Positions 1 through 30,200 of a stretch of 32,000 nucleotides of DNA are shown piece by piece. The stretch is from Candidatus Arthromitus sp. SFB-rat-Yit (GTDB lineage: Bacteria > Bacillota > Clostridia > Clostridiales > Clostridiaceae). Under the pieces are notes generated by a model. It did not search any database. It saw nothing but the letters and a program-made list of their open reading frames with translations, and was not told the origin of the DNA. The DNA lies in the NCBI RefSeq assembly GCF_000283555.1, contig NC_016012.1:1320001-1352000 (forward strand), given 5' to 3'. Made by a program: the position numbers and the translations under genes. Each line of letters starts with the position of its first letter. The stretch's first letter is position 1.

Positions 1-1499
1 TATTCCTGAGTTTGCTGCTTTTTCGCAAGCTCCTCTTGTGCCTTTATTGCATCTTGTTGAAGTTTAACCTGCATTTCCATTGATTGTTGTCCTTGAATTA
101 TACCTGCTATAGATGTACCTAGAAACGCAACTGTACTTAAAAGACCAACCGCTGTCATAACTTTATTAAACCTACCTCCGCTTGAACCACTTTGTTGAAT
201 ATTGCCTGTATTACCAATTCTATTTGTATTTACAGATTCATTGCCTTGAGTTTTTAAGGAAGATGATTTAACTCCAGAAGTACTAGGTTTAACACTTCCA
301 TTTTGTGATCCTGATGTAGTACTTCCCTGTCCTTTATTTCCAGTCGTTGTACCATTTGATGGTTTACCACCTGAATTTGTTTGAGTTATAACAGGTTGTT
401 TTTGGGAAGAACCACTTGATCCACTTTGATTTGTGCTTAGACTAGGTTTATTTTGTGAAGTTCCTGTGTTTGGCTTTAATTGAGATGATCCAGATCCAGC
501 ACTTCCTCCTGTTAATGGCTTATTTGATCCACTAGCTGTACTGTTTTCAAATTTACTAGTCAAATTAGATGTATTCCCTGGCTTCACTGGAACATCTGGT
601 TTATTTTGTGAGCTTCCAGTTGTATTACTACTATTTGGCTTTAATTGAGATGATCCACTACTTGCCCCAGCTGATGGCTTATTTACTGCACCAGTTCCAT
701 TATTTTCAAATTTACTAGTTAAATTCGCAGTATTCCCTGGTTTTACAGGAGCATCTACCTTATTTTGTGAATTTCCTCCAGTTGATGGTTTGTTTACTGA
801 ACCAGTTCCACCATTTTCATACTTGTTAACCAAATTAGATGTATTCCCTGATGGTATACCTGTGCCATTTGTACCTGAAGTACTTGTATTCGGCTTACTT
901 GGTGCTGTTACAGTATTTCCTGCATTTGGCTTACTTGGTGCTGTTACACTGCTTCCTGTATTTGGCTTAGTTGGTGCTGTTATACTGCTTCCTGCATTTG
1001 GTTTAGTTGGAGCTTTTATACCTCCTCCACTAGATGTTCCAGATGTTAATCCTTCAAATTTATTGATCAAACCACCTGTATTTCCTGGTTTTATACCTGT
1101 ACCAGTTGTACTTGAAGTTCCTGAAGTTGGTTTATTTGTTGAAGTTGTACCTCCTGGCTTAACTGTAGAACTTATACCTGTACCTCCAGGCTTAACTGAA
1201 CTTACACCTGTACTCGGCTTATATGAAGTATTCCCTAAACTTGTTGTTGGTTTAAATATACTTGTCCCTCCATTTACAGGGCGTTTAAATCCATTACTAC
1301 CTGTAAACGTATTAACTTTAACTGGATTAAACTTAACCGGAGCTTTCATCATAGCAGATGCCTTTTTTACAGTTCCTATATGCTGAGCTGCTATTCCCGT
1401 AACACCAACTAACGCTGTAGCCATAGCTACTCTATTTAAAAATTTCTTTCTTGATAAATCAGAATCATTATTATTCCGTTTATTATCATTTGAATTCAT
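1..1499 (-). CDS. Low-complexity Ser/Thr/Asn/Gly/Lys/Pro-rich envelope protein, paralog A. The N-terminus is complete and the C-terminus runs off the window start.
   Basis: Not in the supplied ORF track because there is no stop in the window. My hand translation of the minus strand from ATG 1499..1497 stays open to base 1 (499 codons plus a partial one). It reads MNSNDNKRNNNDSDLSRKKFLNRVAMATALVGVTGIAAQHIGTVKKASAMMKAPVKF..., then about 400 aa of S/T/N/G/K/P repeats, then ...GRFNKVMTAVGLLSTVAFLGTSIAGIIQGQQSMEMQVKLQQDAIKAQEELAKKQQTQE. An AAGGAGGG Shine-Dalgarno lies at 1511..1518 (rc). The architecture parallels the downstream gene 1550..3481. Confidence 0.7.
   Translation of the reverse strand, partial: MNSNDNKRNNNDSDLSRKKFLNRVAMATALVGVTGIAAQHIGTVKKASAMMKAPVKFNPVKVNTFTGSNGFKRPVNGGTSIFKPTTSLGNTSYKPSTGVSSVKPGGTGISSTVKPGGTTSTNKPTSGTSSTTGTGIKPGNTGGLINKFEGLTSGTSSGGGIKAPTKPNAGSSITAPTKPNTGSSVTAPSKPNAGNTVTAPSKPNTSTSGTNGTGIPSGNTSNLVNKYENGGTGSVNKPSTGGNSQNKVDAPVKPGNTANLTSKFENNGTGAVNKPSAGASSGSSQLKPNSSNTTGSSQNKPDVPVKPGNTSNLTSKFENSTASGSNKPLTGGSAGSGSSQLKPNTGTSQNKPSLSTNQSGSSGSSQKQPVITQTNSGGKPSNGTTTGNKGQGSTTSGSQNGSVKPSTSGVKSSSLKTQGNESVNTNRIGNTGNIQQSGSSGGRFNKVMTAVGLLSTVAFLGTSIAGIIQGQQSMEMQVKLQQDAIKAQEELAKKQQTQE
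541..750 (-). repeat. In-frame 159-bp (53-codon) duplicated module inside paralog A
   Basis: The string 'ttttcaaatttactagt[c/t]aaatt...gtattccctgg' recurs at 544 and 703, a period of 159. It encodes VKPGNT(S/A)NLTSKFEN... twice. Degenerate further copies encode IPSGNTSNLVNKYEN (about 805-850) and IKPGNTGGLINKFEG (about 1040-1085). Confidence 0.6.
891..1013 (-). repeat. In-frame 36-bp tandem repeat, about 3.4 copies, inside paralog A
   Basis: Units at 891..926, 927..962, 963..998 and a partial 999..1013 ('[c/t]ggctta[c/g]ttggtgctgtta...cctg[c/t]att'). They encode APTKPNAGSSIT / APTKPNTGSSVT / APSKPNAGNTVT / APSKPN... Confidence 0.8.
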
Positions 1500-1549
1500 A
1501 ATCCCTCTAACCCTCCTTGGACCTATAAAATAAGTATTATCTTATTTTG

Positions 1550-3481
1550 TTAAAAACTTCCATTAGTTTGAAAATACTGAAGCAGTTCAAGTGCAGCATT
1601 TGACTGCTCTAAACTTAAAAGATCATTTTCATACATGTACTCAATCATGAAGAAATTCATCCTACCACCTTCTATATTTTCCTTAATAGATTGAAGTTCT
1701 CTATGTGTAAAAATTCCCTCTTGAATAAATTTTTCGAACATGTCCTTATTTTTAAGAACCCTCGCTTCAGATATTCCTGTTTCAAATTTTGTTATATCAT
1801 TATTATCGTAATCTACATCTTCATAATACATAGAGTAAGTACTTCTTCTTGTATTATCTTCATTTTTCTCTATTACAACTGCATCCTCAAACCTTTCATC
1901 AACAAACTCATCTTCTTTAGAATCCCCTCCTCCATCTTCAGAAGGAGTAAAGTTTCCGTCCTTATCATAAACTCCTGAACCATCTGATGGATAAAAGTTT
2001 CCGTCCTTATCATAATGTCCAGAACCATCTGATAAGAAATAATTCCCATCTTTATCTATATATCCAGTACCATCTGAGTAATGGAAATTCATATCTTTAT
2101 CATAATATCCAGAACCATCTGCTAAATGGAAATTCCCATCTTTATCTATATATCCAGATCCATCCTTAAGCTGATAATTTCCATCCTCATCATAGTATCC
2201 ATCTGAATCTGATTCATCAACTTCCCCAGATTCTACCTCTGATGCACTCTCCATTGCCATCTGAGCTTTCAGCATCTCTCTCTCATGCTCCATTTGCTTC
2301 TCTTGCATTTTCATCTGAGCTTCTATCGATTCATTCTGAAGTTTTTCTTGAAGTTTCATTTGCTCTGCTGCCTGCACAGAACCCATTATACTAGATACTG
2401 CAAATCCGGCACTCATAAGGTTACCAGCAACACTCGAACCAATTTGAATTTTATCTGCAAGACTTGGCTTATTAGTTTGATCTAACTGAGGCTTATTTGC
2501 AGAACCTCCTGCATTATTATTATTGTTATTATTTGCGTTAGCATTATTATTAGATGCGCTTCCAGAGCTTGGCTTATTACTATTTGCATTAGCATTACTA
2601 TTAGATGTGTTTCCAGAGCTTGGCTTATTACTATTTGCATTAGCATTACTATTAGATGTGCTTCCAGAGCTTGGCTTATTATTATTTGCGTTAGCATTAC
2701 TATTAGATGTGCTTCCAGAGCTTGGCTTATTATTTGAATTGTTAGTGGATGTAGAATTATTATTTGGTTTATTAGTACCTGAACTATTAGTAGAAGTATT
2801 TGGTTTACTAGGAGCTGCGCTATCTCCTTTACTACTTCCAAATCCTCCATCTACACTTGAAGATTGGTTTGAATTAGATGATGTGTTCCCTGGTTTCTTT
2901 GTTGTATTCGAGTTACTGTTACTAGGTTTATTAACAGTATTTCCACTAGGCTTATTATTTCCTGTACTAGTTGTTACAGGAGGTTTTTTACCAACTATGG
3001 TGTTACTTGAACTAGATGATGACGAACCTGAACTACCTGTTATTACATTACCAGAACTAGGCTTGTTTGACGTACTTCCTGATGAAGATGATGTCCCTCC
3101 TGGCTTACTTGAACTAGTTGATCCTCCCAAAGGTTTTTTATTTGTTGAAGATGATGATGTTCCTCCTGGCTTATTTGAAGTACTTGCTCCTCCCACTGGC
3201 TTATTGCTTGTAGTACCACTCGGCTTGCTTGAACTACTGCTACTTGAACTACTACTTGATCCAGATGGTTTAGGTTTAAGTGTAGAAGTAGTTGGTTTTT
3301 TGATAGGTGGCTTTTTAAATGAAGGAAGTTTAAACTTTAATGCTTGAGCCTCTTTAGGGGGAAGTTCCGAAACTCCAATACTAGTAATTGTTGCAAGAGT
3401 TGTTGCGATTCCAAATGACTTAATAAGTTTCTTTCTAAAGCTTTTATCATTTTTAATTTTATCTGTATCCCTACTCACCAA
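1550..3481 (-). CDS. Low-complexity envelope protein, paralog B (643 aa). Order of parts: signal-like N-terminus, Ser/Asn-rich disordered region, TM-like segment, Gln/Met/Glu coiled coil, 6x15-aa Asp/Gly/Tyr repeats, unassigned C-terminal domain of about 125 aa.
   Basis: ORF track entry. AAGGAGGG SD at 3487..3494 (rc), 5 nt before TTG 3481 (GTG at 3478 is also possible). The N-terminus is ...KSFRKKLIKSFGIATTLATITSIGVSELPPKEAQA. The TM-like segment IGSSVAGNLMSAGFAVSSIMGSV is coded at about 2376..2446 and is followed by QAAEQMKLQEKLQNESIEAQMKMQEKQMEHEREMLKAQMAME. Only 50 nt with no terminator separate it from paralog A, so the two are probably co-transcribed. Confidence 0.8.
   Translation of the reverse strand: MVSRDTDKIKNDKSFRKKLIKSFGIATTLATITSIGVSELPPKEAQALKFKLPSFKKPPIKKPTTSTLKPKPSGSSSSSSSSSSSKPSGTTSNKPVGGASTSNKPGGTSSSSTNKKPLGGSTSSSKPGGTSSSSGSTSNKPSSGNVITGSSGSSSSSSSNTIVGKKPPVTTSTGNNKPSGNTVNKPSNSNSNTTKKPGNTSSNSNQSSSVDGGFGSSKGDSAAPSKPNTSTNSSGTNKPNNNSTSTNNSNNKPSSGSTSNSNANANNNKPSSGSTSNSNANANSNKPSSGNTSNSNANANSNKPSSGSASNNNANANNNNNNNAGGSANKPQLDQTNKPSLADKIQIGSSVAGNLMSAGFAVSSIMGSVQAAEQMKLQEKLQNESIEAQMKMQEKQMEHEREMLKAQMAMESASEVESGEVDESDSDGYYDEDGNYQLKDGSGYIDKDGNFHLADGSGYYDKDMNFHYSDGTGYIDKDGNYFLSDGSGHYDKDGNFYPSDGSGVYDKDGNFTPSEDGGGDSKEDEFVDERFEDAVVIEKNEDNTRRSTYSMYYEDVDYDNNDITKFETGISEARVLKNKDMFEKFIQEGIFTHRELQSIKENIEGGRMNFFMIEYMYENDLLSLEQSNAALELLQYFQTNGSF
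1940..2209 (-). repeat. Six tandem 45-bp (15-aa) in-frame repeats, consensus DGSGYYDKDGNFxxS
   Basis: Repeat boundaries at 1940/1985/2030/2075/2120/2165. The units encode DSDGYYDEDGNYQLK, DGSGYIDKDGNFHLA, DGSGYYDKDMNFHYS, DGTGYIDKDGNYFLS, DGSGHYDKDGNFYPS and DGSGVYDKDGNFTPS. Confidence 0.9.
2531..2734 (-). repeat. Four tandem 51-bp (17-aa) in-frame repeats
   Basis: The 'atttgc' unit starts at 2531, 2582, 2633 and 2684, an exact 51-nt period. The units encode KPSSG(S/N)(T/A)SN(S/N)NANAN(N/S)N four times, near-identical at the DNA level. Confidence 0.9.
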
Positions 3482-3571
3482 TTTCTCCCTCCTTGAAAAT
3501 TAATGATGATAAAAAATAAATTAATCAAATCTTTCTCTAACTACTTTTATTATCGTAATACAAAAAATTTT

Positions 3572-3612
3572 TTAAACAAAAAAAATGAAAACTTTAATCA
3601 AAAAGTTTTCAT
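3572..3612 (-). terminator. Rho-independent terminator after the M28-like gene
   Basis: Stem 'atgaaaacttt' (3585..3595) pairs with 'aaagttttcat' (3602..3612). On the minus strand it is followed by 'tttttttgttt'. Confidence 0.75.
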
Positions 3613-5088
3613 TTAATTCTCTTTATTAGGTTTTAATAAAATTATCCTAAGAATCACATAAAATACAATTAACGCAACTAAAAGTATTGATAGATTCTTT
3701 ATTAACATATCATTTTTACTACTATCCTCTTCCTCATAATTCCCAATTGAAGAAGAATAATCGAATATAAATTTTTTAGATTTTATCTCAAAATTGCTAT
3801 TTTTAATGTCATCTCTCACCAAGTTATAATTGTCAGTAAATTCTTTCCTATACGTGTATGTCACAATTTCATCATTTACAAAAACAAATTCACCATTAAC
3901 ATTATCCTTAAAATTAAACTCAAATTCATCTATATTTTTCAGAAAATCAATTCCATTAGGAGAAATAACTTTAACAGTATAATTACCCTCATCTAAATTT
4001 TTAAATTCAGTAACTAAAGTTTCATTTAAAGTAATCTCTTTTATCTTTTTATTACCTTTATAAAGAACGTACTTTACTTGAGATATCTTATCTAAATTCT
4101 CCTCTGATAACTGAGTTATTATCTTTATACTTCTATTTTCTCTAACCAAATAATTAAATAATACTTCTACGCAACTGGATAAATTCTTCGTAACAGTATC
4201 AACAAAATTTCCCATCACATAGTTATAATTATCATCACTACTTCCTTCTATTATTCCAATACCCTCTCCAGTAGGATCATCTGGTAAACCATAATTTTTA
4301 TCTACACTTTCAAAAGAAGTAGCTTCAATTTTCCCAAATGGAACATTACTATATTTAAATGGAACATGATCTCCTATATCTGCACAAACCCCTTCTGGAA
4401 TACTTTGTTCCAAATTTTCTTCAGTAGTCAGAATTTTAATTTTCAACTCTTTAGATAATGATAATAATTCATCTCTAACAAATCCCTTATTTCCACTATT
4501 ACCATAAACGTATAAATTTTTTCCGCTACCAAGAGACGTTAAATTCAAAAAATACATTATCTTATCAAGTTCATCTTGAGATCTAGTTGATACATAATGT
4601 GTTGATCCTATTTCTCCATTTTTTCCACTACCAAATAATACAAATTTTAAAGTAAATGGAAAACTCATATCCTTAACCCTATCTGCAACCTCAAGTAAAA
4701 CAGAAACACCTGTAGCTCCTTCAAATCCTGTTGATCCATCAACATTTTCTGAATCATAAGAAGCTCCAATTATAACTTCTAAATCGCTCGCTCCTTTTTT
4801 AGTTGCAATAATATTGTGAGATAAATAATATCCAGGAGTAAAATTCAAAACCGTGTCTTCAGGAAAAGAAATCTCTTCAAATGAAGTATCATAACCAAAA
4901 TCTCTAAGTAATCTTCCTAAATAATCCGCTGTATAAACCTCACCTTCACTAAAAGAAACTCTAGGTATTCTAGATATCTGTTCTAAATAATCAAGTGCAT
5001 ACTTCCCAAACTCCTCAGCTTGTACACTCGGTTTAAAACAACATACAAACAAAACAATAAAAACAAATATCTTATATATCCTCTTCAA
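3613..5088 (-). CDS. Exported, C-terminally membrane-anchored M28-family peptidase homolog, probably non-catalytic
   Basis: Signal peptide MKRIYKIFVFIVLFVCCFKPSVQA|EE. The M28-like block order is GASYDS ... GFEGATGVSVLLE ... FVLFGSGKNGEIGSTHY ... FLNLTSLG ... GDHVPF. A C-terminal beta-sandwich-like region is present (EGNYTVKVISPNG), as is a final TM helix LSILLVALIVFYVILRIILL. TTG start with GGGTGA upstream. Confidence 0.6.
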   Translation of the reverse strand: MKRIYKIFVFIVLFVCCFKPSVQAEEFGKYALDYLEQISRIPRVSFSEGEVYTADYLGRLLRDFGYDTSFEEISFPEDTVLNFTPGYYLSHNIIATKKGASDLEVIIGASYDSENVDGSTGFEGATGVSVLLEVADRVKDMSFPFTLKFVLFGSGKNGEIGSTHYVSTRSQDELDKIMYFLNLTSLGSGKNLYVYGNSGNKGFVRDELLSLSKELKIKILTTEENLEQSIPEGVCADIGDHVPFKYSNVPFGKIEATSFESVDKNYGLPDDPTGEGIGIIEGSSDDNYNYVMGNFVDTVTKNLSSCVEVLFNYLVRENRSIKIITQLSEENLDKISQVKYVLYKGNKKIKEITLNETLVTEFKNLDEGNYTVKVISPNGIDFLKNIDEFEFNFKDNVNGEFVFVNDEIVTYTYRKEFTDNYNLVRDDIKNSNFEIKSKKFIFDYSSSIGNYEEEDSSKNDMLIKNLSILLVALIVFYVILRIILLKPNKEN

Positions 5089-8004: not shown

Positions 8005-9777
8005 CTAACAAACTAAATCTTTATACTTATAGTACTTATTTTTAAGTATTTCTATAGACTTTCTAAAAAAATCCTCCTCGCTTATATCAATATTAAATAT
8101 TTTTCCTAATTCCTCTAAATTATTCTTTCCAGACTTACTAAGCAATTTTTCATACTTTTCATGAAAAGTTTCCTTATTATTTAAATAACAATCATAAATA
8201 CCGATTGAAAAAAGTAATCCAAAAGCATATGGATAATTATAAAAATTATACTTAAAATCATAATAATGAGATTTATAAATCCACGCTTCTTTAAAATACT
8301 CATCATTCATAGAATCACCATAAGCTTCTTTTTGAGCATTTAACATAATCTGATTTAAATTATCTGGAGTTAAAAACTCATTTTCACATCTTTGAAATAC
8401 TTCCTTCTCAAATAAAAATCTACTATATATATCAACAATTACTTGAGTTGCACTATTTAACTCATACTCTAAAATAATGATTTTCTCTTCTTCATCTACA
8501 AAATTAAACGCTTTATCACAAATTAAAGTTTCAAAAAAAATAGAAGCAGTTTCTGCAATTGTCATAGGATAATTCGTATTTAATATTCTCTCATTTTTAA
8601 TCAACTCTCCATGATAAGCATGACCAAGTTCATGTGCAAGTGTAAATATAGAGTCATATGAATTATTGAAATTCATTAAAATCCTGCTTTCTTTTATTGG
8701 AATTATGTTATAACAAAATGCTCCTCCAACTTTCCCCTCATATATATTAGAATCTATCCAATTATTATCAAAAGCATTCTTTACAAAATCCCCAACCTTA
8801 GTTGAAAAATCATAAAAATTTCCAATCAAAAAATCTTTTGCATATAAAAAATCTACCTTATTTTTAGATTCGCGTGTTTGAGCAAACAAATCACTATAAT
8901 AAATCTTATTTTGTTTATCTCCCATAATCTTTCCCTTAAGTTTCAAAAATTCTCTAAATAAAGGTAAACTTTCTTTCATAACGCTCATTAAAGATTCAAA
9001 AGTTTTTTCAGAAATTCTGTTATCTTTTAGAGTTTTACTTAATGGAGAGTCATATTTCCTTTTTTTGTTATCATAAATAACACTCTTTTTAATGTTATTT
9101 AGTGCAAAAGAGATTGGATCTTCCATATACTTGTACAATTTTTTCTCCGCTTCTAACGCTTTGAATCTCAAATCCCTATTTGAACTTTCAAGCATACTTC
9201 TACATTCTGTAAGTGGAATCTCTTTAACCCCATTACCAATATCCAACTCAACTTTATACTTTGATATCAAAGTATCTTGAAGTGCAGAGTAAGACATTGC
9301 TCCATAATTTAAAAGAGATGCCATACTCTCCTCAACTTCATCTGATAATAAATGCTTTGAATTATAAATAAGTTCTTCTATTAAAAACGAGTATTCATTC
9401 AAAATATAACTTTTATGTAATATAGATAAAATATCTTCACAACTTGATACTATTTTGATTATTATCAGTTCTATTGACACAACTTCAACATAAATATCTT
9501 TCAATATGCAATCATTGTCCATAGCATCTTTATCATTAGAATCACAAGCCATATTCAAAAATATAAAGGATGATAATCTCATAAATAGCGAATAAATATT
9601 CTCGTATTCTAGAAATACATTCTCTAAAATTTTTAAAATTTCATCCTCTTTTGTATATTTAAGCGTAATACCTTTAAATCTATTAAAACTTTTAATACTA
9701 TCTTTAAGTAATAACAAATCACTCTTAAATTTTTCCGAAGAAAAACCTTCATATATGTTATCTAAATTCCACTTCAT
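8005..9777 (-). CDS. M3B-family oligoendopeptidase (second PepF-like paralog)
   Basis: 590 aa. HELGHAYH motif with downstream TIAETASIFFE. GGAGAA SD before ATG 9777. Confidence 0.8.
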   Translation of the reverse strand: MKWNLDNIYEGFSSEKFKSDLLLLKDSIKSFNRFKGITLKYTKEDEILKILENVFLEYENIYSLFMRLSSFIFLNMACDSNDKDAMDNDCILKDIYVEVVSIELIIIKIVSSCEDILSILHKSYILNEYSFLIEELIYNSKHLLSDEVEESMASLLNYGAMSYSALQDTLISKYKVELDIGNGVKEIPLTECRSMLESSNRDLRFKALEAEKKLYKYMEDPISFALNNIKKSVIYDNKKRKYDSPLSKTLKDNRISEKTFESLMSVMKESLPLFREFLKLKGKIMGDKQNKIYYSDLFAQTRESKNKVDFLYAKDFLIGNFYDFSTKVGDFVKNAFDNNWIDSNIYEGKVGGAFCYNIIPIKESRILMNFNNSYDSIFTLAHELGHAYHGELIKNERILNTNYPMTIAETASIFFETLICDKAFNFVDEEEKIIILEYELNSATQVIVDIYSRFLFEKEVFQRCENEFLTPDNLNQIMLNAQKEAYGDSMNDEYFKEAWIYKSHYYDFKYNFYNYPYAFGLLFSIGIYDCYLNNKETFHEKYEKLLSKSGKNNLEELGKIFNIDISEEDFFRKSIEILKNKYYKYKDLVC

Positions 9778-20016: not shown

Positions 20017-20162
20017 TATAAAAATTTATTATTTTTTTATATAAATATAATCATATATTTTATATTTTAAAATTAATTTCTACATATTTTTTATTAATTA
20101 ATAAACACTATATACTTAGTTTATAATAAATATGAAACTTTTATATAAAGAAGGTGTTTAAA

Positions 20163-21233
20163 ATGACATCAACAAAAGAAAAAGACAACAATACATCAGG
20201 TATAGATCTTAATATCTATGAAAAACTTATAAAAGAAGAATCTGATAGATTAAAACAACAAAATGATTCTCTTCAATATAAGCTTTCAATAACGAGTAAT
20301 CTACTTGATATAAGTAAATATCTCAATACTCGTATTGCAAGCGATAATATTTTCAATGTAATAAATGATGTTGCAATAGCTATATTCGGTGTTAAGTATT
20401 CAACAATTATAGTTAAAGAATCTGAAAATACCTATTTAAATATTTCAAATGTAAATAGTAAAAACTATAAAAATTTTAACTTTATGCATAAATTTTTCGG
20501 AGAAGAAACATTTCTAATTTCATGTAAACAAGAATTAAATATAGACTCAATAAAAGAACCTGATTCAAAATCATTACTTGGTTATCCAATATTTTGCAAA
20601 AAAGAATTTGTTGGATATATGATTCTTGAACATCCATATGAGAATTTTTTTGATACTCATAAAGTTCATTTTTTAGGATCTCTTGCAGATCTCTTAGCAA
20701 TGACATATGAAAACTATATGTTATATAAACAATTGGACGAAAAATCTAAAAATGATCCTATACTAAACATTTTAACAAGAGCAGAATTTTTAGATAGAAT
20801 AAATAAAATCATACTTAAAAAACCTCAAAAAGATTTTGCGTTAATTATGATAGATGTAGATAATTTCAAACATATAAATGACTCTCATGGACATATATTT
20901 GGAGATTCTGCTTTAATACAAACAACAAATGTTATAAAAGAACTTTTAGATGAAAATGACATATTTGCAAGATATGGAGGGGATGAGTTTATACTATACA
21001 CTAATTCCTTTGACTCAACAAAAGAACTCATAACAAAAATTGAGAAACTAAGAATGAGTATTGAGAAAAATACCATTGAACTCAATGGATCTAAATCAAG
21101 CATTACTATGAGTTTTGGAATATCTATATATCCATACGATGGTAAAACACTCGATTCTTTATTAAATTTTGCAGATAACATGCTATATATGGCCAAAGAA
21201 AATGGAAAAAATAAAGTAGAAATAAATTTATAA
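20163..21233 (+). CDS. Diguanylate cyclase (coiled coil + GAF-like + GGDEF)
   Basis: RYGGDEF active-site motif, DVDNFKHINDSHGH, and a GAF-like middle region. The preferred start is ATG 20163, 6 nt after AAGAAGGTG. The track's GTG 20154 lies inside that SD. Confidence 0.85.
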   Translation: MTSTKEKDNNTSGIDLNIYEKLIKEESDRLKQQNDSLQYKLSITSNLLDISKYLNTRIASDNIFNVINDVAIAIFGVKYSTIIVKESENTYLNISNVNSKNYKNFNFMHKFFGEETFLISCKQELNIDSIKEPDSKSLLGYPIFCKKEFVGYMILEHPYENFFDTHKVHFLGSLADLLAMTYENYMLYKQLDEKSKNDPILNILTRAEFLDRINKIILKKPQKDFALIMIDVDNFKHINDSHGHIFGDSALIQTTNVIKELLDENDIFARYGGDEFILYTNSFDSTKELITKIEKLRMSIEKNTIELNGSKSSITMSFGISIYPYDGKTLDSLLNFADNMLYMAKENGKNKVEINL

Positions 21234-21237
21234 TTTA

Positions 21238-21266
21238 TTGATGGGCTTATGTGTTGCATGTATAAT
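21238..21266 (+). promoter_or_regulatory. Candidate extended -10 sigma-A promoter for the phosphoesterase-relQ pair
   Basis: TTGATG (21238..21243), a 17-nt spacer ending in TG, then TATAAT (21261..21266). Confidence 0.55.
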
Positions 21267-21299
21267 ATAACTTGCATAGATTTTTAGGGAGTGATTAAT

Positions 21300-21995
21300 T
21301 TGAACTTATTTGCAATATCGGATTTACATTTATCATTTAATTCTGAAAAACCAATGGATATTTTCGGAAAAAAGTGGATTAATCACTTTAATACAATTAT
21401 GGAAAATTGGTTAAAATTAATTTCTGATAATGATGTAGTTTTAATTTGCGGAGATACTTCATGGGCAATGAATATGAAAGAAGTGATTTCAGATCTTAAT
21501 TGGATAGATAATCTTCCTGGTAAAAAAATTATCATAAGAGGTAACCACGATTTTTGGTGGTCTAGTATAAGTAAATTGAACTCTATTTATGAAAATATAA
21601 AATTTATTCAAAATAACTATATTCCATTTAAAAATTACGCAATCTGTGGAAGTCGAGGTTTTAATATAGATATCCTAGACTCTCAAGATAAAGAAAGTCA
21701 TTTAAAAATATTAGAGAGGGAAAAAATAAGAATGAACCTCTCCTTGAGTTCTGCTAAAAAAGATGGATATGAGAAAATAATTTATATGAGTCATTATCCT
21801 CCATTTTCAATAAACAACAGTTCTCTAAATAAAAATATTTTTATGGATGTTTTAAATGAGTATGATGTTGAAATAGTTGTATATGGACATATCCACAGCA
21901 ATTTTGAAAAATTTTATGATAGAGAAATAAATTATACAAAATACTACTTAACATCTTGTGATTATTTAAATTTTATTCCCCTAAGAATCTTATAA
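21300..21995 (+). CDS. Calcineurin-like metallophosphoesterase (COG1768-type predicted phosphohydrolase)
   Basis: Motifs SDLHLS (DxH), CGDTSW (GD), RGNHDFWW (GNHD), SHYPP and YGHIH (GHxH). AGGGAG SD at 21285..21290. TTG 21300 has better spacing than the track's GTG 21291. Confidence 0.75.
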   Translation: MNLFAISDLHLSFNSEKPMDIFGKKWINHFNTIMENWLKLISDNDVVLICGDTSWAMNMKEVISDLNWIDNLPGKKIIIRGNHDFWWSSISKLNSIYENIKFIQNNYIPFKNYAICGSRGFNIDILDSQDKESHLKILEREKIRMNLSLSSAKKDGYEKIIYMSHYPPFSINNSSLNKNIFMDVLNEYDVEIVVYGHIHSNFEKFYDREINYTKYYLTSCDYLNFIPLRIL

Positions 21996-22029
21996 AATTA
22001 TTTATTTTCTAGCTAATAGGTGATATATT

Positions 22030-22824
22030 ATGGCTATAAAACAATGGAGAACCTTTCTTATGCCATACCAACAAGCTGTTGAGGAACTAAAAATTAAATT
22101 TAAAAGTATTCGTAGAGAATTCAAATTTAAAAATGAATATTCCCCTATTGAGTTTGTTACAGGTAGAGTTAAAGAAGTGGCTAGTATACTTGAAAAAGTT
22201 AAGAAATTTAATATTTCTATGGATAGAATAGAATTTGAACTCGAAGATATTGCTGGAATTCGTATAATGTGCCAATTTGTAGACGATATAATGAAAGTAG
22301 TAAACATAATAAGAAAACGTAAAGATTTAACTATTTTATATGAAAAAGACTACATAACAAATGTAAAAGAAAGTGGATATAGAAGTTACCATATTATAAT
22401 CAAATATCCTGTTAATTTATCCATAGGATGCAAAGAAATTATATCAGAAATACAAATTAGAACTCTTGGAATGAACTTTTGGGCAACAGCAGAGCATTCA
22501 CTAAATTATAAATATAAGCAACACATACCTGGTAATTTAAAGACTAAACTTAAACAAGCTGCAGATACAGTGTATAAACTAGACGAATTAATGACACAAA
22601 TAAAAGATGAAATAAGGGATGCTCAAAGATTGTTTGATGTTAAATCACACATAGTTTCAAATATAACTGATGCTTTAACTAGTTTAATATCCTTAGGCGG
22701 AATAAAAGAGTTTACAAATTATCAAATACAACTTACAACACTTATAGAAATTGGAGATATAAATCAATTAAACTCTCTACTACTTAAAATACAGAGAGAT
22801 ATTGATAAATATAAAAAATTTTAA
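22030..22824 (+). CDS. relQ: Small alarmone synthetase ((p)ppGpp synthetase, RelQ/YjbM type)
   Basis: KQWRTFLMPYQQAVEELKIKFK, SPIEFVTGRVK, DIAGIRIMCQFVDDI, GYRSYHIII and EIQIRTLGMNFWATAEHSLNYKY are RelA/SpoT synthetase-domain motifs. They are collinear with B. subtilis YjbM as I recall it. Confidence 0.85.
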   Translation: MAIKQWRTFLMPYQQAVEELKIKFKSIRREFKFKNEYSPIEFVTGRVKEVASILEKVKKFNISMDRIEFELEDIAGIRIMCQFVDDIMKVVNIIRKRKDLTILYEKDYITNVKESGYRSYHIIIKYPVNLSIGCKEIISEIQIRTLGMNFWATAEHSLNYKYKQHIPGNLKTKLKQAADTVYKLDELMTQIKDEIRDAQRLFDVKSHIVSNITDALTSLISLGGIKEFTNYQIQLTTLIEIGDINQLNSLLLKIQRDIDKYKKF

Positions 22825-22860
22825 AGACTCCTAAAAACTATTTAGGAGTCTTAATTTATA
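22824..22860 (+). terminator. Hairpin terminator after relQ (weak U-tract)
   Basis: Stem 'aagactcctaaa' (22824..22835) pairs with 'tttaggagtctt' (22841..22852), followed by 'aatttata'. Confidence 0.55.
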
Positions 22861-22876
22861 ATAACGAGGTTTAATA

Positions 22877-24472
22877 ATGAGTGATTTTATAGATGAAATT
22901 AAGAAGAGAAGAACATTTGGTATAATATCCCACCCAGATGCTGGTAAAACTACACTTACAGAAAAATTATTATTATACGGTGGAGCAATACGACTTGCTG
23001 GATCTGTTAAGGCTCGTAAATCTTCAAAACATGCGGCATCTGATTGGATGGATATAGAAAAACAAAGAGGAATATCTGTTACAAGTTCAGTTCTTCAATT
23101 CAATTACGATGGATTTTGTATAAATATATTAGATACTCCAGGGCACGAAGATTTCTCGGAAGATACATATAGAACACTCGTTGCATGCGACTCTGCTGTA
23201 ATGGTAATAGATGGCTCAAAAGGAATTGAGCTTCAAACTAAAAAATTATTCCACGTATGCTCTATTTTAAACATACCTATTTTTACATTTATAAATAAAG
23301 TCGACCGTGAAATTAAAGATCCATTTGATTTAATGGAAGAAATTGAAAAAGAATTAGGGATAAAATGTTATCCTATGAACTGGCCCATCGGGTGCGGTGA
23401 TAATTTCAAGGGAATATATGAAAGAAATGAAGAAAAAATATATATCTTCTCAAATAAAAATCATGGACAAGATATTATAGATTCCTATGAAGGCAAATAT
23501 ACAGACGAAGTATTTAAAGATATTTTAGGTGATCATCTACACAAAACTTTAATCGAAGATATAGATTTATTAAATATACTAGATACTCAATTTGATCATA
23601 ATAAAGTATTAGATGGTAAACTTACTCCTGTATTTTTTGGATCTGCTATAACAAATTTTGGAGTTGAAATATTTTTAAAAAACTTTCTCAAATATTCTTC
23701 AATGCCACTTAAACGTGAATCTACAATTGGGGATATCTCTCCTACTGAAGACTATTTCTCAGCATTTATATTTAAAATACAGGCAAATATGAATCCAAAA
23801 CACAGAGATAGAATAGCATTTATGCGAATATGCTCAGGAAAATTTGAAAAAGGAATGGAAGTATCACATATACAAAACAATAACAAAATTAAACTTGCTC
23901 AACCCCAACAATTCTTTGCTCAAGAAAAAGAATTCATAGATGAAGCATACGCAGGAGATATAATAGGTGTATTTGATCCAGGTATATTTTCAATCGGTGA
24001 TACTCTAACAACATCAAAAACTCCATTTAAATTTAATGGTATGCCTGCCTTCTCACCAGAATTATTTGCAACTGTTAAACCTGTAAACTCAATGAAGAGA
24101 AAACAATTTTTAAAAGGTATTACTCAAATTTCACAAGAGGGAGCTATACAAGTATTTAAAGAATTTAACTTTGGTATGGAAGAAGTTATAATTGGAGTTA
24201 TTGGAAATTTGCAGTTTGAAGTTCTTGAATATAGATTGAAACATGAATATAATACAGACATTAAAATAAATAAAATTCCATACTCCTTCATACGATGGAT
24301 TGAAAAATTAGATATTCCAATTGATGATTTAAATCTAACTAGCGACACAAAAAAGGCGATAGATTTAAAAGGTAGAAACATATTAATATTTCAAAATAAT
24401 TGGGGAATACAATGGGCTCTTGATAAGAATCCATCAATTGTTTTATCTGATATAGGAAAATTTCAAGATTAA
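22877..24472 (+). CDS. prfC: Peptide chain release factor 3
   Basis: 531 aa. RRTFGIISHPDAGKTTLTEKLLLYGGAI, DTPGHEDF and NKVDRE GTPase motifs in the RF3 arrangement and length. Confidence 0.9.
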   Translation: MSDFIDEIKKRRTFGIISHPDAGKTTLTEKLLLYGGAIRLAGSVKARKSSKHAASDWMDIEKQRGISVTSSVLQFNYDGFCINILDTPGHEDFSEDTYRTLVACDSAVMVIDGSKGIELQTKKLFHVCSILNIPIFTFINKVDREIKDPFDLMEEIEKELGIKCYPMNWPIGCGDNFKGIYERNEEKIYIFSNKNHGQDIIDSYEGKYTDEVFKDILGDHLHKTLIEDIDLLNILDTQFDHNKVLDGKLTPVFFGSAITNFGVEIFLKNFLKYSSMPLKRESTIGDISPTEDYFSAFIFKIQANMNPKHRDRIAFMRICSGKFEKGMEVSHIQNNNKIKLAQPQQFFAQEKEFIDEAYAGDIIGVFDPGIFSIGDTLTTSKTPFKFNGMPAFSPELFATVKPVNSMKRKQFLKGITQISQEGAIQVFKEFNFGMEEVIIGVIGNLQFEVLEYRLKHEYNTDIKINKIPYSFIRWIEKLDIPIDDLNLTSDTKKAIDLKGRNILIFQNNWGIQWALDKNPSIVLSDIGKFQD

Positions 24473-24539
24473 TATATTAATATTTTCTTAATAACTTGTT
24501 AATACTAACCTTATTAAATTTTAAGAGGAGTTGTTTTTT

Positions 24540-24704
24540 ATGGATAAAAAATACGGTCCTAAAATACGTATATCTGATAAAACAGACAAAGCAATTAAAA
24601 ATTATAATAAGGTTAATCACACTAACATTCCTAATCCTAAAACAGATCCAATAGTTGTTAATAATATAGCTTCAATGGAATTTGATTACACCGAAGAAGA
24701 ATAA
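24540..24704 (+). CDS. Hypothetical small protein (54 aa)
   Basis: Hand-found: AAGAGGAG SD, then ATG 24540. The product is MDKKYGPKIRISDKTDKAIKNYNKVNHTNIPNPKTDPIVVNNIASMEFDYTEEE. A strong terminator follows immediately. I recognise no family. Confidence 0.4.
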   Translation: MDKKYGPKIRISDKTDKAIKNYNKVNHTNIPNPKTDPIVVNNIASMEFDYTEEE

Positions 24705-24742
24705 ATGTGCTTTTCATATAAAGCACATTTTTATTTTTTTAT
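24703..24742 (+). terminator. Rho-independent terminator
   Basis: 11-bp stem 'aaatgtgcttt' (24703..24713) pairs with 'aaagcacattt' (24720..24730), followed by 'ttattttttt'. Confidence 0.85.
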
Positions 24743-24776
24743 ATTAAAAATTTTTTAAATAATAATCTATCCTATC

Positions 24777-24804
24777 ACTCTAAAAATACACAAAACATAC
24801 ATTA
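24777..24804 (+). promoter_or_regulatory. Candidate sigma-K-type (late mother-cell) promoter for dpaA
   Basis: AC (24777..24778), a 17-nt spacer, then CATACATTA (24796..24804). This fits the Bacillus sigma-K consensus AC-16/17-CATAnnnTA and lies 40 nt before the dpaA ATG. In AT-rich DNA such a match may arise by chance. Confidence 0.3.
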
Positions 24805-24844
24805 TATACAAAATAAAATATATTTTAAAAGGAGAATATAATTA

Positions 24845-25666
24845 ATGAACTTATTAATTATTGGTGGAGATGAAAGATCCATTGCATTGAAGGATATCCT
24901 AAAAAAAAATAATTTTAATGTTCATTCATCATTTCTAAATGAAAATGAAAAAGATGTTGAAAATTTAAATGATTTCGATATAATTATCCTCCCAATACCA
25001 TTTGAACGTGAATCAAAATTAAATGCCCCATTTTATGATAAAGAAATTAAATCTTCATATACACTAGAGAAATTAAAACATTTTAAAGGAACAATAATTG
25101 GAGGATTTAACAAAAAAAACGAAGAATTCTTCGTAAATGAAAATTTAAATTTTAAAAACATATTAGAAGATGAAAATTTCACATTAATTAACGCTATAAT
25201 AACAGCTGAAGGATCAATAGAAAAATTAATACACGAGAGTTATAAGAGCTTATTTGAATCAAATGTATGCATATTAGGATATGGTCGCATAGGAAAAGCT
25301 CTATCTAGAAGAATGTATTCTTTATGCAACAAATTAACAGTATACAATAATCCATCTATTAATTTAACCTACACAAAAATAGACAATATAAATTCTCATG
25401 AACTTAAATATTTTAAAGATCACGCCCCACAATATAACATAATAATAAATACCATACCTCATTTAATTATAAACAAAGAAATTTTAGATATCATAAATAA
25501 AGATACACTAATATTAGACCTTTCGTCTAACCCTGGAGGTGTTGATTTTTCATACGCTCAAAAACTTGAAATAAAAGTTATACATTACCTAGGTGTACCA
25601 GCTAAAGTTTCAAAATACAGTTCCGCAAATGCAATTTTCAGCTTTCTTTTAAAAACTTTAAAATAA
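24845..25666 (+). CDS. dpaA: Dipicolinate synthase subunit A
   Basis: 273 aa, collinear with SpoVFA as I recall it: LLIIGGDERS, ILPIP, NAIITAEGSIE, ILGYGRIGKALSRRM (Rossmann GxGxxG), INTIPHLI, LILDLSSNPGGVDF and LGVPAKVS. Confidence 0.8.
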   Translation: MNLLIIGGDERSIALKDILKKNNFNVHSSFLNENEKDVENLNDFDIIILPIPFERESKLNAPFYDKEIKSSYTLEKLKHFKGTIIGGFNKKNEEFFVNENLNFKNILEDENFTLINAIITAEGSIEKLIHESYKSLFESNVCILGYGRIGKALSRRMYSLCNKLTVYNNPSINLTYTKIDNINSHELKYFKDHAPQYNIIINTIPHLIINKEILDIINKDTLILDLSSNPGGVDFSYAQKLEIKVIHYLGVPAKVSKYSSANAIFSFLLKTLK

Positions 25667-27234: not shown

Positions 27235-30200
27235 TTATATTGTTAAATCTATTGTTTTCATATTTTTAATTATTATAAAATCATCTTCATAATTTTCTCC
27301 ATCTATTTTCAAACATTTGTTATGACCTTTTTTCACAATAATTTCAAAATTTTCATTAAATAAATTACATTCTACCCTATAATCATCCCAAGAAGAAGGA
27401 ATATGAGGTTTTATATAAAATCCATTCTCCCTTAAATTTATACCCAAGATATCTTCAATAACTACTCTATAAAATATCGAAGAAATATAGTTAAAATCCT
27501 CATTAATTACCTTAAATAAATTATTACCCCTAAATAATAATTTATATGGAATAAAATATGGTTCAGATTTATATGAATTCACATCATTTCTACTTATTGT
27601 TCTTAATATAGGATTTAAAAAACTCATATACTTATACGCCCTATCATTCAAGTTAAGCTTAAATAATTCTCTTATAAATAACAATAATGTTTTATTATTT
27701 TGAATGCTATCGAACTCTCTTACAATATTTGTTGTTTTATCAAAATACTCTCTTATAAATCCTAACTCATCATTAACTAAATATTTTTCAATTGAACCTA
27801 TTACCTTATTAACAGTTTCATGAACAATTCCTAAAGACAATACCTGAGGCAACAAATGTATATCATTACATATTTTTTTATTTTCATTAACATTTAATTT
27901 GTTTATATAAAACTCTCCATTAAAACATTTGTTGCTAAGGAATTCTAATAAATCTTCTTTGCTTCTAATAATTACACTCTTAACATTTTCATCATGCATA
28001 CACATAGCAACATCAAAAAAAGCATCTAACGTTTTATAAAGCATAAATAATACACTAGTTTCAGTAATATCTTTTCCTATTAAAGTCCTAAATTCAGTAT
28101 ACCTATTTATAACTTTCAAACATTTATCATATATGGTTGAAGATTTAATTTCTAAATTTTTATTTTCAATACTATTTACAAATTTTATATCCATCTTCAA
28201 TAATTCAATATCTCTAGTTACTTTTATGTAATCACTAACTAAATAAACCAAACTTAATAAATCATATGGATTTGAATTTATTTCATACTCTTTACTTAAA
28301 TAACTCCATTTATCCCTAAATCTACCATCTTCATACATATTTGAAAAAACCTTAATTATATTCTTTTTACTTTTTTGGGGATCTAAATAATTATAAATTA
28401 AACATTTTTCCATCAAATCAACACATGAATTTAATTCCCCTTTATTTGAACTATTTAATAAAAACTTTTCATTATCATTTTGATGTAGAACCCATCCATT
28501 AATAAGAATATCTATAAATGCATCTTGAGTATTAATTTTAAATATTTTACATTGATTTTTAAATAATTTTTCATTTTCATCATTCATATCATCAAATAAA
28601 GTAGGATTTTTTATAAACTCATTAATCTCATAATTTATATTTTCAATATTATCATCATAACCTAAAATTGCATATACATTTTTTTCCTCATTAGCTTTTA
28701 GTTTTAAATCTCCTGAAATACATAAACATGACTCTAAAAATATTCCCGATAAATTACTCAGTTTATCTTTATACATTCCCACAGGATTAAAGTATCCTTT
28801 ATTAATACCTAAAAACTCTCTTTTACTTCCAGTAAAAGATACATTATCACAACCAAATAATTTTAAATAACTCTTTATATTACTAAAATATCTAGATAAA
28901 CTATTCTGACCATAAATATACTTCAAATCAAAATCTATATATGTATATAGATTTTTAGAATAATCATTATTAGAAGATAATAACAATGGTGCAAAATAAC
29001 ACACACTTAACGACTTATCACGTGAAGATAAATTTTTAAAATTAATTCGTATTATCTTATACTTCTTATTATCAGGTATAAAATACTTAACTTCTGTTTG
29101 TAAATCATTATATTTATTTCGTATTTTTGTATAATTGAACGAATTATAAATTATATAATCTTCACCATTACTAATAGGATTTAATGTTGGAGACCATACT
29201 ACATTACCATCTTTTATGTAAATACACTCACCTTTATAATTATAATTATCCTTACCTAATTCCTCTGTAATTAAAAATTCCTTACACTCAAAAGCCCAAG
29301 TATTAACAAATCCTTTAGATGATATAATGGTAAAAATATGCTTATTACTTAAAATATTCCTATAATAATTTGGAGTTATATTTGTATCATTTAATTTAAG
29401 TATATATTCGAAATTATTTAAATCAAATCCTCCATATGAATTATAGAATTTAAGATCATTCTTAGCTATATCATACTTTATAATATTATCATAATTAGTA
29501 ATCTCATCTGATATTTCAAATAAATACTTATTATACGGTATTGGTATATAACTATATGATGCGTCACTTCGATCATTATCTATTTCAATTAATCTATTGC
29601 TCTTATCTTCTTTTAAATTTTCTCGAAAATCTTTAATCTTAAATCCTATCTGATCATATACACTATCTCCACCGGGAACTATATGTAAATTAGAAATACT
29701 CTTTACGATATCACATGCATTTTTGTATAAACTCGATAAAATGATATATATGCCATTATCTACATTCATTTTATTTTTTAAATCATATCTCAATATAATC
29801 TTATCTATTTCATTGTCTATATTTTTATCATAGCTTATATAACTATTTAAAATTATCAAATTAACATCTAACCTATTTATTGAAAAATATGAAAAAGCTT
29901 TAATTAAAATTTCTAAATTATTTAAATCCTTGAATGAATTAATCTCTATAGATAAAATCGGTATATTAGGATTTACATTATGCGAAATTAAATCATTAAT
30001 ATTAAATCGATTATTAATAATTCTATCATCATTATTAACTCCATATATCATAGATGATGTCATATAATTAAATAAAGATAACTCTATTAATGTTATATTC
30101 AAATTAGATATCATCGATTTTAAATTATATCCATTACTCTTTAATAATCCATTTATAATACCCATGTTCTTATATTTCTCAATAGTATTATATAACTCTT

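Follow-up and report, generated by a model that had tools for sequence, protein, structure and literature searches.

The described systems that stand closest to the proteins treated here are the classical serine-rich-repeat (SRR) adhesins, which combine cytoplasmic glycosylation, accessory Sec export and host-glycan binding, the animal membrane mucins, the single-span proteins MapZ/LocZ, RodZ and SepJ, and proteins with TonB-type spacers. Among commensals, segmented filamentous bacteria (SFB) are the textbook example of inducers of Th17 cells and IgA in the intestine, an effect that requires attachment and hinges on what is exposed at the surface; apart from the major Th17 antigen and the flagellins, we know of no SFB envelope molecule that has been identified. 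By cryo-electron tomography, an S-layer was seen on the intracellular offspring of SFB, which is replaced on the filaments by a 'hair-like layer' with a spacing of about 5 nm, and disordered hairs were seen at the adhesive tip; what these three structures, described in 2025, consist of is not known (PMC12780176). SFB genomes contain no sortase (PMC7474095), and surface polymers of these bacteria therefore need another anchor. In this work we analysed a stretch of 32,000 nt (hereafter the window) from Candidatus Arthromitus sp. SFB-rat-Yit, an SFB of the rat gut (contig NC_016012.1, positions 1,320,001 to 1,352,000), and concentrated on two adjacent genes at its left end, named A and B. Their products appear to belong to a set of three paralogous proteins that may build a membrane-rooted complex of the SFB envelope.

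Both genes lie on the minus strand. Gene B (1550-3478) is complete and encodes 642 aa followed by a stop codon, and gene A (1-1499), which begins at ATG 1499 and is open to base 3, is cut by the window edge after 499 visible aa. The spacer between them (1500-1549) is 50 nt long, gave no terminator-like site in a consensus scan and holds the Shine-Dalgarno sequence of A. An identical octamer, AAGGAGGG, serves as Shine-Dalgarno sequence for both genes, at 3487-3494 for B (8 nt upstream of GTG 3478) and at 1511-1518 for A (11 nt upstream of ATG 1499). An earlier note on this DNA, made from the sequence alone, had described two co-oriented genes 50 nt apart with no terminator between them and the same AAGGAGGG, which the coordinates bear out. 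It was also right that the first gene is missed by open reading frame (ORF) callers: A is absent from the ORF listing because its reading frame runs off the window edge with no stop inside. The listing contains one complete ORF at 1550-3481 (minus strand, 643 aa), for which TTG 3481 was taken as the start. Since the orthologs of B all begin with M(S/G)RDT (in the mouse-like ortholog VSRDTD, with GTG as the first codon), we placed the start of B at GTG 3478 and not at TTG 3481.

The description of A and B as a pair had to be given up, as a third paralog, C, beyond the left window edge makes them a trio. In every locus with enough sequence (the SFB-lineage loci L002, L003, L004, L005 and L011), the gene order is (PepF-)M28 peptidase, B, A, C, with gaps of 30-75 nt from B to A to C. 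A and B are, as far as gene order tells, the first two genes of a conserved operon B-A-C. C is a protein of 338-407 aa composed of an N-terminal segment, the 8 residues QKPKESEA, a strongly hydrophobic helix, a K/R/E-rich helix, a very acidic region and a C-terminal domain, and has no mucin-like segment. A hidden Markov model of the C-terminal domain found exactly three copies per locus, and no more in the locus DNA examined. The alignments support the earlier view that A and B are paralogous and extend it to C: 23 N-termini (A, B, C and the mini-paralog described below) align with a near-invariant Arg within RKK and a near-invariant Ala that ends (A/S/T/V)-x-A, the transmembrane/helix segments of A, B and C align, and their C-terminal domains align over about 60 columns. 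The tails of A and B also share predicted 15-aa beta-hairpin repeats. Judged from these alignments, A, B and C are paralogs built on one plan of unusual layout. In one species a mini-paralog of 153 aa was found between the M28 gene and B (L002 7979-8440); it has the N-terminal segment of the family, followed by 70 aa rich in S/N/R, a membrane helix and a short tail rich in Lys, without the repeats and the C-terminal domain.

The plan can be followed best in B, which is complete. Residues 1-46 (3341-3478, minus strand, as are all features of A and B below) form a predicted Sec-type signal peptide with a basic n-region containing RKK, the h-region FGIATTLATITSIGV and a c-region ending in A-Q-A (KEAQA); the corresponding signal peptide of A (1353-1499) ends in KKASA, so that the basic N-termini with signal-like segments, as first read, were confirmed in the sequence. 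Residues 47-346 of B (2441-3340; 300 aa) make up a low-complexity (LC) segment, which is the predicted ectodomain. It contains 38% S+T, 19% N, 10% G and 9% P, and its 31 K+R against 4 D+E give a net charge of +27. The predicted cationic LC ectodomain of A (162-1352) is 396 aa long with a net charge of +32; over A and B the LC ranges are 32-38% S+T, 8-9% P, 12-19% N and 10-16% G. The dipeptide KP occurs 22 times in the LC segment of B and 21 times in that of A, as against about 3 expected from composition, with a median spacing of 12-13 residues. The LC and repeat DNA holds tandem arrays of 51 bp x 4.1, 45 bp x 4.5 and 36 bp x 3.6, the first of them at 2526-2734 inside the LC segment of B. The statement of the earlier note that aromatic residues are absent from these segments is not quite right, since the LC segment of A has 10 of them. 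The term 'mucin-like' refers to composition only.

The LC segment of B is followed by the small-residue-rich hydrophobic segment IGSSVAGNLMSAGFAVSSIMGSV (residues 347-371, 2366-2440; Kyte-Doolittle value 1.32), a predicted membrane anchor. Its counterparts in the alignment, in A and in C, are clearly hydrophobic and likewise rich in small residues; the transmembrane helix of A (90-161) has a Kyte-Doolittle value of 1.96. Next comes a long Q/E/K/M amphipathic helix predicted by AlphaFold2, possibly a coiled coil (residues 372-418, 2225-2365), and in A the start of a long Q/E/K helix is visible (3-89). A transmembrane-like segment followed by a coiled coil had been described in the earlier note; the hydrophobic segment and the helix were found, but the heptad pattern of the helix is irregular, and in the model (positions 19-73) its predicted local distance difference test score (pLDDT) is only 50-64. 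Six DGSGYYDKDGNF repeats of 13-15 aa (residues 426-513, 1940-2203), which correspond to the 45-bp tandem array in the DNA, were modelled by AlphaFold2 as 12 short strands with pLDDT of about 80 and are predicted to form beta-hairpins. They are followed by an acidic linker (residues 514-577, 1748-1939), modelled with low confidence, and by a compact four-helix C-terminal domain (residues 578-642, 1553-1747) with two helix-turn-helix units of the form LVxxGxhTxxExxxI. The net charge of the B tail is about -40. The acidic linker and the six repeats agree with the tail as it was first described, whereas the ordered domain comprises about 65 aa instead of about 125, the 60 or so residues before it belonging to the low-confidence linker.

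AlphaFold2 run on residues 344-642 of B with an alignment of 8 sequences gave a mean pLDDT of 60, in which the four helices of the C-terminal domain reached 70-83. When the C-terminal domain was modelled alone with 16 sequences, the mean pLDDT was 85, the predicted template modelling score 0.71, and 58 residues were above 90. The homolog search and structure prediction that the earlier note had proposed for the B tail yielded relatives in the SFB lineage and a confidently modelled C-terminal domain, but a helix and a linker of low confidence.

Searches against 5.8 billion proteins placed matches to the B tail in five clusters, those to the A tail (represented by the ortholog from L005) in four and those to C in 25, all without a name or a Pfam domain. 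A profile of the C-terminal domain had 58 matches at E <= 1e-3 among 1.84 billion representatives, 23 of them at E <= 1e-10. The strong matches that were inspected have A-, B- or C-type architecture, except two unrelated repeat proteins, a silk-like protein of 4551 aa (P0035) and a further repeat protein (P0044), which we rejected as family members, their profile matches being driven by repeats. A scan of 185,579 species (one genome each) detected B in a Clostridiales metagenome-assembled genome (MAG), an uncultured Candidatus Arthromitus and Candidatus Dwaynia gallinarum only; two Patescibacteria proteins in the same scan share just the repeats. The protein plan recurs in orthologs from at least 7 other SFB-lineage assemblies, the relatives including mouse SFB and a chicken-gut MAG. 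In the searches made, the B-A-C family appears limited to the SFB lineage. Mouse SFB has SFBNYU_002440, a hypothetical protein, as its ortholog of B; a literature search on the locus tags found no papers.

To describe selection by region, the ratio of nonsynonymous to synonymous substitution rates (dN/dS) was calculated for B of the window against the mouse-like SFB contig L011. The values were 0.24 for the signal peptide, 0.39 for the LC segment (with 49 gap columns), 0.13 for the transmembrane segment with the helix, 0.11 for the repeats, 0.12 for the acidic linker and 0.10 for the C-terminal domain. Between A of rat and mouse, the signal peptide is 78% and the transmembrane/helix region 87% identical, and the LC segment has 149 gap columns. 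Purifying selection acts on the tail; insertions and deletions reshape the LC segment. Decay in related strains, which had been named as an outcome that would speak against the genes, was not seen: they are intact there, with dN/dS of 0.10-0.13 in the tail modules. We concluded that A and B are real and conserved genes.

Many public calls of the orthologs are cut to the last 260-300 aa (P0001-4, P0007-9) and start at a Met within the membrane helix. In L002 the sense ORF is open, yet an antisense ORF of 315 aa was called over it. Truncated calls are due to contig breaks and antisense mis-calls, and as they affect most orthologs, the family is largely invisible to comparative analyses. Long antisense ORFs over the LC regions were noted in the window at 790-1386 and 2523-3347 (both plus strand) and in L002 at 8800-9747 (minus strand).

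On A and B, Pfam and NCBIfam gave no match at E <= 0.1, and a Pfam search with the repeats alone and with the A tail gave nothing but noise. In the PDB sequence search the best E value was 0.63 for the C-terminal-domain profile, and the repeats alone gave E >= 0.69. Foldseek with both models (B tail and C-terminal domain) returned nothing from the PDB at E <= 0.001, and from BFVD its top match was a phage 'Short C-terminal domain' protein with E = 1.2 and a target-normalised TM-score of 0.72, which is not significant. Weak matches of the C-terminal domain to (HhH)2/topoisomerase V were discarded for the same reason. These results agree with the earlier note in that no family can be named for the proteins, that the tail matches no characterised division, sporulation or flagellar family in sequence or fold, and that LPXTG, KxYKxGKxW, SLH and cell-wall-binding motifs are absent.

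The C-terminal domain, which had been taken for an orphan, reaches no named family but has distant likenesses. Weaker matches of its profile (E 1e-9 to 1e-4) are small signal-peptide proteins with tandem LVxxGxITxxQxDAI units, which are Pfam DUF2680 proteins with sub-threshold SHOCT matches. An hhalign comparison of the profile with 32 DUF2680-type units gave a probability of 93.5% and E = 2.3e-7, over 26 columns only, and it is the first half of the family domain that matches the unit. In the direct searches, neither DUF2680 (PF10925, YckD-like, gathering threshold 25 bits; E values up to 10 considered) nor SHOCT (PF09851, gathering threshold 27 bits) matched B, A or the 16 C-terminal domains, and DUF2680 proteins differ from A and B in being small, secreted tandem-repeat proteins without a transmembrane helix or LC segment. 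The domain consists of two helix-turn-helix units of a widespread type, distantly like DUF2680/SHOCT; the likeness suggests a short motif in common and is not enough to establish membership in the family.

The DGSGYYDKDGNF repeats were compared with the choline-binding CW_binding_1 and YD/Rhs repeats, which likewise are short Gly/Asp/aromatic repeats predicted to form successive beta-hairpins. However, the period of the DGSGYYDKDGNF repeats is 15 residues instead of about 20, neither kind of repeat matched them in Pfam at E <= 10, and LytA in the PDB gave E = 7.7, which is not significant. The only clear relatives of the B repeats outside SFB are those of a Patescibacteria lipoprotein, and these too have no Pfam family. 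This protein of 617 aa has a lipobox and about 10 GYYDxYGNYILxDGSG repeats (L007 2630-4483; L008 8981-10834). Proteins already described from SFB were considered as well. The SFB-specific Clusters 1 and 3 of Pamp et al. are DUF4214 proteins, which A and B are not; the known SFB Th17 epitopes are absent from all six frames of the locus; and the phage-display antigens SFB3340, 5460, 3310 and 15470 differ from SFBNYU_002440.

For the membrane topology, the arrangement with the LC segment outside and the tail inside is more likely than the inverted one, by roughly three to one on our reading of the sequences. In their n-h-c layout the N-termini look like Sec signal peptides, and the (A/S/T/V)-x-A site has been conserved throughout the A, B and C groups. 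Rough insertion estimates, made with scale values after Hessa et al. 2005 and ignoring position weighting, were about +4 to +5 kcal/mol for the first hydrophobic segments, which is signal-peptide-like, and -0.4 (C) and +0.9 kcal/mol (A) for the second segments, which is membrane-helix-like; B, at +5.4 kcal/mol, is marginal. In C the two segments are 8 residues apart and the N-terminus carries a charge of +5, therefore only an orientation with both termini inside appears reasonable; the mature chain of C would begin directly at the transmembrane helix. The Lys-rich tail after the helix of the L002 mini-paralog also fits a C-terminus inside. The n-regions S-R-K-K-F-L-N of A (1440-1455) and F-R-K-K-L-I-K of B (3421-3436) resemble the Tat motif S/T-R-R-x-F-L-K, from which they differ in having RK, not RR; a mildly hydrophobic h-region comes after them.

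Our best reading, to which we assign a probability of about 0.4, is that A, B and C form a membrane-rooted envelope complex with wall-spanning polycationic bristles. Once its signal peptide is cleaved, each of the three would be a membrane protein of type I, its tail cytoplasmic and its LC segment, in A and B, external. They might join into a hetero-oligomeric anchor held together by the homologous transmembrane helices, amphipathic helices and C-terminal domains. A hint in this direction is that the transmembrane helix of B is marginal and rich in small-xxx-small spacing; such a weak membrane segment could be stabilized inside an A/B/C bundle. The cationic, fast-evolving ectodomains of A and B would thread the anionic Gram-positive wall, possibly reaching beyond it, as flexible bristles or tethers, and the acidic repeat/C-terminal tail may couple the surface layer to a cytoplasmic partner. 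In this way a bacterium without sortase could gain a membrane-rooted envelope or surface layer, and the operon would offer a route by which a sortase-less Gram-positive roots surface polymers in its membrane. A host-interface role of A and B, as put forward in the earlier note, is conjecture.

That A and B are subunits of the ordered hair-like layer of SFB filaments and/or of the tip hairs is a distinctly unlikely extension of this proposal. If it were true, it would mean a new kind of bacterial coat, made of disordered polycationic bristles which are rooted by a transmembrane helix and kept in register by a cytoplasmic lattice of the helices, repeats and C-terminal domains of A, B and C, and it would be unlike a secreted self-assembling S-layer protein or a sortase-anchored fibril. 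The operon is in any case a concrete candidate for an SFB surface structure that can be tested with antibodies.

Several points weigh against the membrane-rooted complex, and some of them would fit an inverted topology, in which the N-terminal segment is neither translocated nor cleaved, the lysine-rich LC segment stays in the cytoplasm, the second helix runs from inside to outside, and the acidic helix, DGSGYYDKDGNF repeats and C-terminal domain are displayed outside as a Ca2+- or wall-binding module. The charges of the ectodomains (+27 and +32) and of the B tail (about -40) are contrary to a simple positive-inside expectation, and positive charge is slightly higher directly ahead of the transmembrane helix than directly behind it. 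DGSGYYD-type repeats sit behind the lipobox in the Patescibacteria lipoprotein, the DUF2680-type repeat proteins carry signal peptides, the secreted neighbour gene (L002, L011; see below) has similar YD-like motifs, and the DKDGN motifs look to us like Ca2+-binding loops, which would be more sensible outside the cell. The hydrophobicity of the B membrane segment is, as given above, marginal, the coiled coil lacks regularity and its model is of low confidence, the conserved neighbours give no clue to function, and hetero-oligomerization is pure inference on our part. The outside brush and inside tail proposed in the earlier note are accordingly supported by the signal-peptide layout and the spacing in C, and contradicted in part by the marginal segment of B, the reversed charge bias and the tail relatives that are extracellular elsewhere. 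We nevertheless consider the inverted topology unlikely, as the N-terminus has all features of a Sec signal peptide and its (A/S/T/V)-x-A site is kept in three paralog groups, as inversion would in C, with its 8-residue spacing, either place the N-terminus with its charge of +5 outside or keep one hydrophobic segment from being buried, as the short Lys-rich tail of the mini-paralog follows its helix, and as hypervariable S/T/P/K-rich segments are typical of extracytoplasmic linkers.

Somewhat less improbable is that the working end of the trio is cytoplasmic and that it acts as a membrane scaffold in a morphogenetic process peculiar to SFB, for instance the septation of segments, the cohesion of cells in the filament, the shaping of the tip or the formation of the intracellular offspring. 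The helices, repeats and C-terminal domains would then organize a cytoplasmic assembly, and the LC segment would be no more than a spacer or anchor in the peptidoglycan, comparable to the S/T/P-rich linkers of MapZ, RodZ or SepJ. It is the tail that is conserved (dN/dS about 0.1), with an ectodomain free to vary in sequence; C, which has no ectodomain, is yet the most widely recovered member; the family is confined to a lineage with a unique multicellular life cycle; and membrane-parallel 'tracks' and plate-like structures in SFB cells are unexplained (PMC12780176). However, none of the known division, sporulation or cytoskeletal proteins proved similar, and a pure spacer leaves the cationic character, the KP periodicity and the KFEN motif of A unexplained. 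The scaffold overlaps in part with the membrane-rooted complex instead of excluding it. An assignment to the classical SRR adhesins could appeal to a Ser/Thr-rich low-complexity region in a Gram-positive, epithelium-attached bacterium, but we regard it as very improbable. The N-termini are 46-49 aa long with RKK, h-region and AxA, and not KxYKxGKxW signal peptides of about 90 aa; there is no LPXTG (B ends ...LQYFQTNGSF) in a bacterium that has no sortase; the LC segment contains no folded ligand-binding region and is K/N/P/G-rich instead of being made of SxSx dipeptide repeats; a transmembrane helix and a 270-aa tail follow it; and the 32-kb window, like the 20-kb loci L002, L004 and L005, lacks secA2, secY2 and glycosyltransferase genes. 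Finally, the long ORFs on both strands of the low-complexity DNA and the often truncated public calls could raise the suspicion of artefact ORFs or decaying genes without function. This is refuted by the full-length sense ORFs, intact in every locus with enough sequence, by the strong Shine-Dalgarno sequences at both genes, by dN/dS of 0.10-0.24 outside the LC segment and by the confidently modelled C-terminal domain.

The ectodomain of A has one further feature. Four copies of the motif (KP)GNTxNLxx(K/R)(F/Y)E(N/G) lie at 1050-1085, 813-848, 702-737 and 543-578, with KPGNTSNLTSKFEN as an example, and most of the 10 aromatic residues of the LC segment are inside this KPGNTxNLxxKFEN motif. Two copies were found in mouse A and one each in the A of L004, L005 and L006. 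The KFEN-type motif, which all A orthologs have conserved, is the sole conserved, aromatic-containing element of the LC segment and includes NxS/T sequons; binding or modification might take place there. The orthologs of A are 584-755 aa long, among them the full-length mouse ortholog P0108 (639 aa). On a metagenome contig of 4x coverage (L011 2384-4488), a frameshift directly ahead of the membrane helix breaks the mouse-like A in two, which, in view of the intact P0108, is probably an assembly error.

Upstream of B, a terminator-like hairpin (3585-3612) followed by a U8 run (3577-3584) was found by folding after the M28 peptidase gene on the minus strand. Its folding free energy is -11.7 kcal/mol (z -4.36), and 0 of 200 shuffles fold as well; the consensus scan missed it because its stem is AT-rich. 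It follows that B-A is a transcription unit of its own, separate from M28, and that this site is the upstream boundary of B-A(-C). A candidate sigma-70-type promoter of B, TTTAAA - 16 nt - GATAAT (3549-3576, minus strand), matches at 9 of 12 positions; it is weak, as sites of this quality are no more frequent in the region than expected from shuffled sequence. A sigma-28-like (flagellar) promoter upstream of B, read by eye, was dropped for its wrong spacer length. An exact look-up of the B sequence with either start codon gave no match, and the Logan contig that matches the window ends within B.

The M28 peptidase gene itself (3613-5088, minus strand; PF04389, E = 3.6e-14) encodes a protein that begins with a signal peptide, has a prealbumin-like domain in the middle and is anchored by a transmembrane helix at its C-terminus. 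It is directly upstream of B in every locus seen (L002, L004, L005 and L011) and usually preceded by oligoendopeptidase F (PepF); in the window, M28 and PepF are identical to BAK81715.1 and BAK81716.1 of SFB-rat-Yit. The position of a membrane-anchored M28 aminopeptidase beside proteins with a predicted free extracellular N-terminus is suggestive. Downstream of C, a convergent gene encodes a secreted, very acidic protein (L002 14346-15776 and L011 5805-6512, both minus strand), whose C-terminal YD-like motifs FFDKDGNKLLYDADTNSYF resemble the repeats of A and B; a weak, sub-threshold OCRE match (E = 0.0017) belongs to this neighbour in L002 and not to A or B. Elsewhere in the window, 27235-31938 (minus strand) encodes a protein of 1567 aa with glucoamylase-like and GH94 (supersandwich, catalytic) domains, which by its domains is a putative large glycan phosphorylase or cyclic-glucan-type enzyme, notable for a small reduced genome. 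A run of signalling and sporulation genes at 20154-25666 (plus strand) comprises a GAF-GGDEF diguanylate cyclase, a metallophosphoesterase, a small RelA/SpoT-type alarmone synthetase, RF3 and dipicolinate synthase subunit A.

Compared with the known systems, A and B share with the SRR adhesins GspB, Fap1 and SraP a long Ser/Thr-rich segment, a length that varies between strains and a host-attached Gram-positive bearer, but they are cationic and anchored by a transmembrane helix with a large structured tail. To the animal membrane mucins of the MUC1 type there is an analogy only, in the signal peptide, the S/T/P-rich disordered ectodomain with variable tandem repeats, the one helix and the cytoplasmic tail; the two are not homologous, the ectodomain of A and B is polycationic whereas glycans make that of mucins polyanionic, and the tail of A and B, with its repeats and helical domain, is far larger. 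The TonB-type (Lys-Pro)n spacers are alike in regularly spaced KP, the anchor in the cytoplasmic membrane and the predicted crossing of the wall. In A and B, however, KP recurs every 12-13 residues within S/T/N/G and forms no contiguous rod, a TonB C-terminal domain is lacking, and the bacterium is Gram-positive. MapZ/LocZ, RodZ and the cyanobacterial SepJ resemble A and B in crossing the membrane once, with a structured or coiled-coil part in the cytoplasm and a linker of low complexity through the peptidoglycan, and SepJ comes, like the SFB proteins, from a filamentous multicellular bacterium. They show no sequence or fold similarity to A and B, differ from them in orientation and domain order, and carry a folded outer domain, whereas the LC segment of A and B ends free at the N-terminus. 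The family is best filed among the membrane- and wall-associated low-complexity proteins of the envelope.

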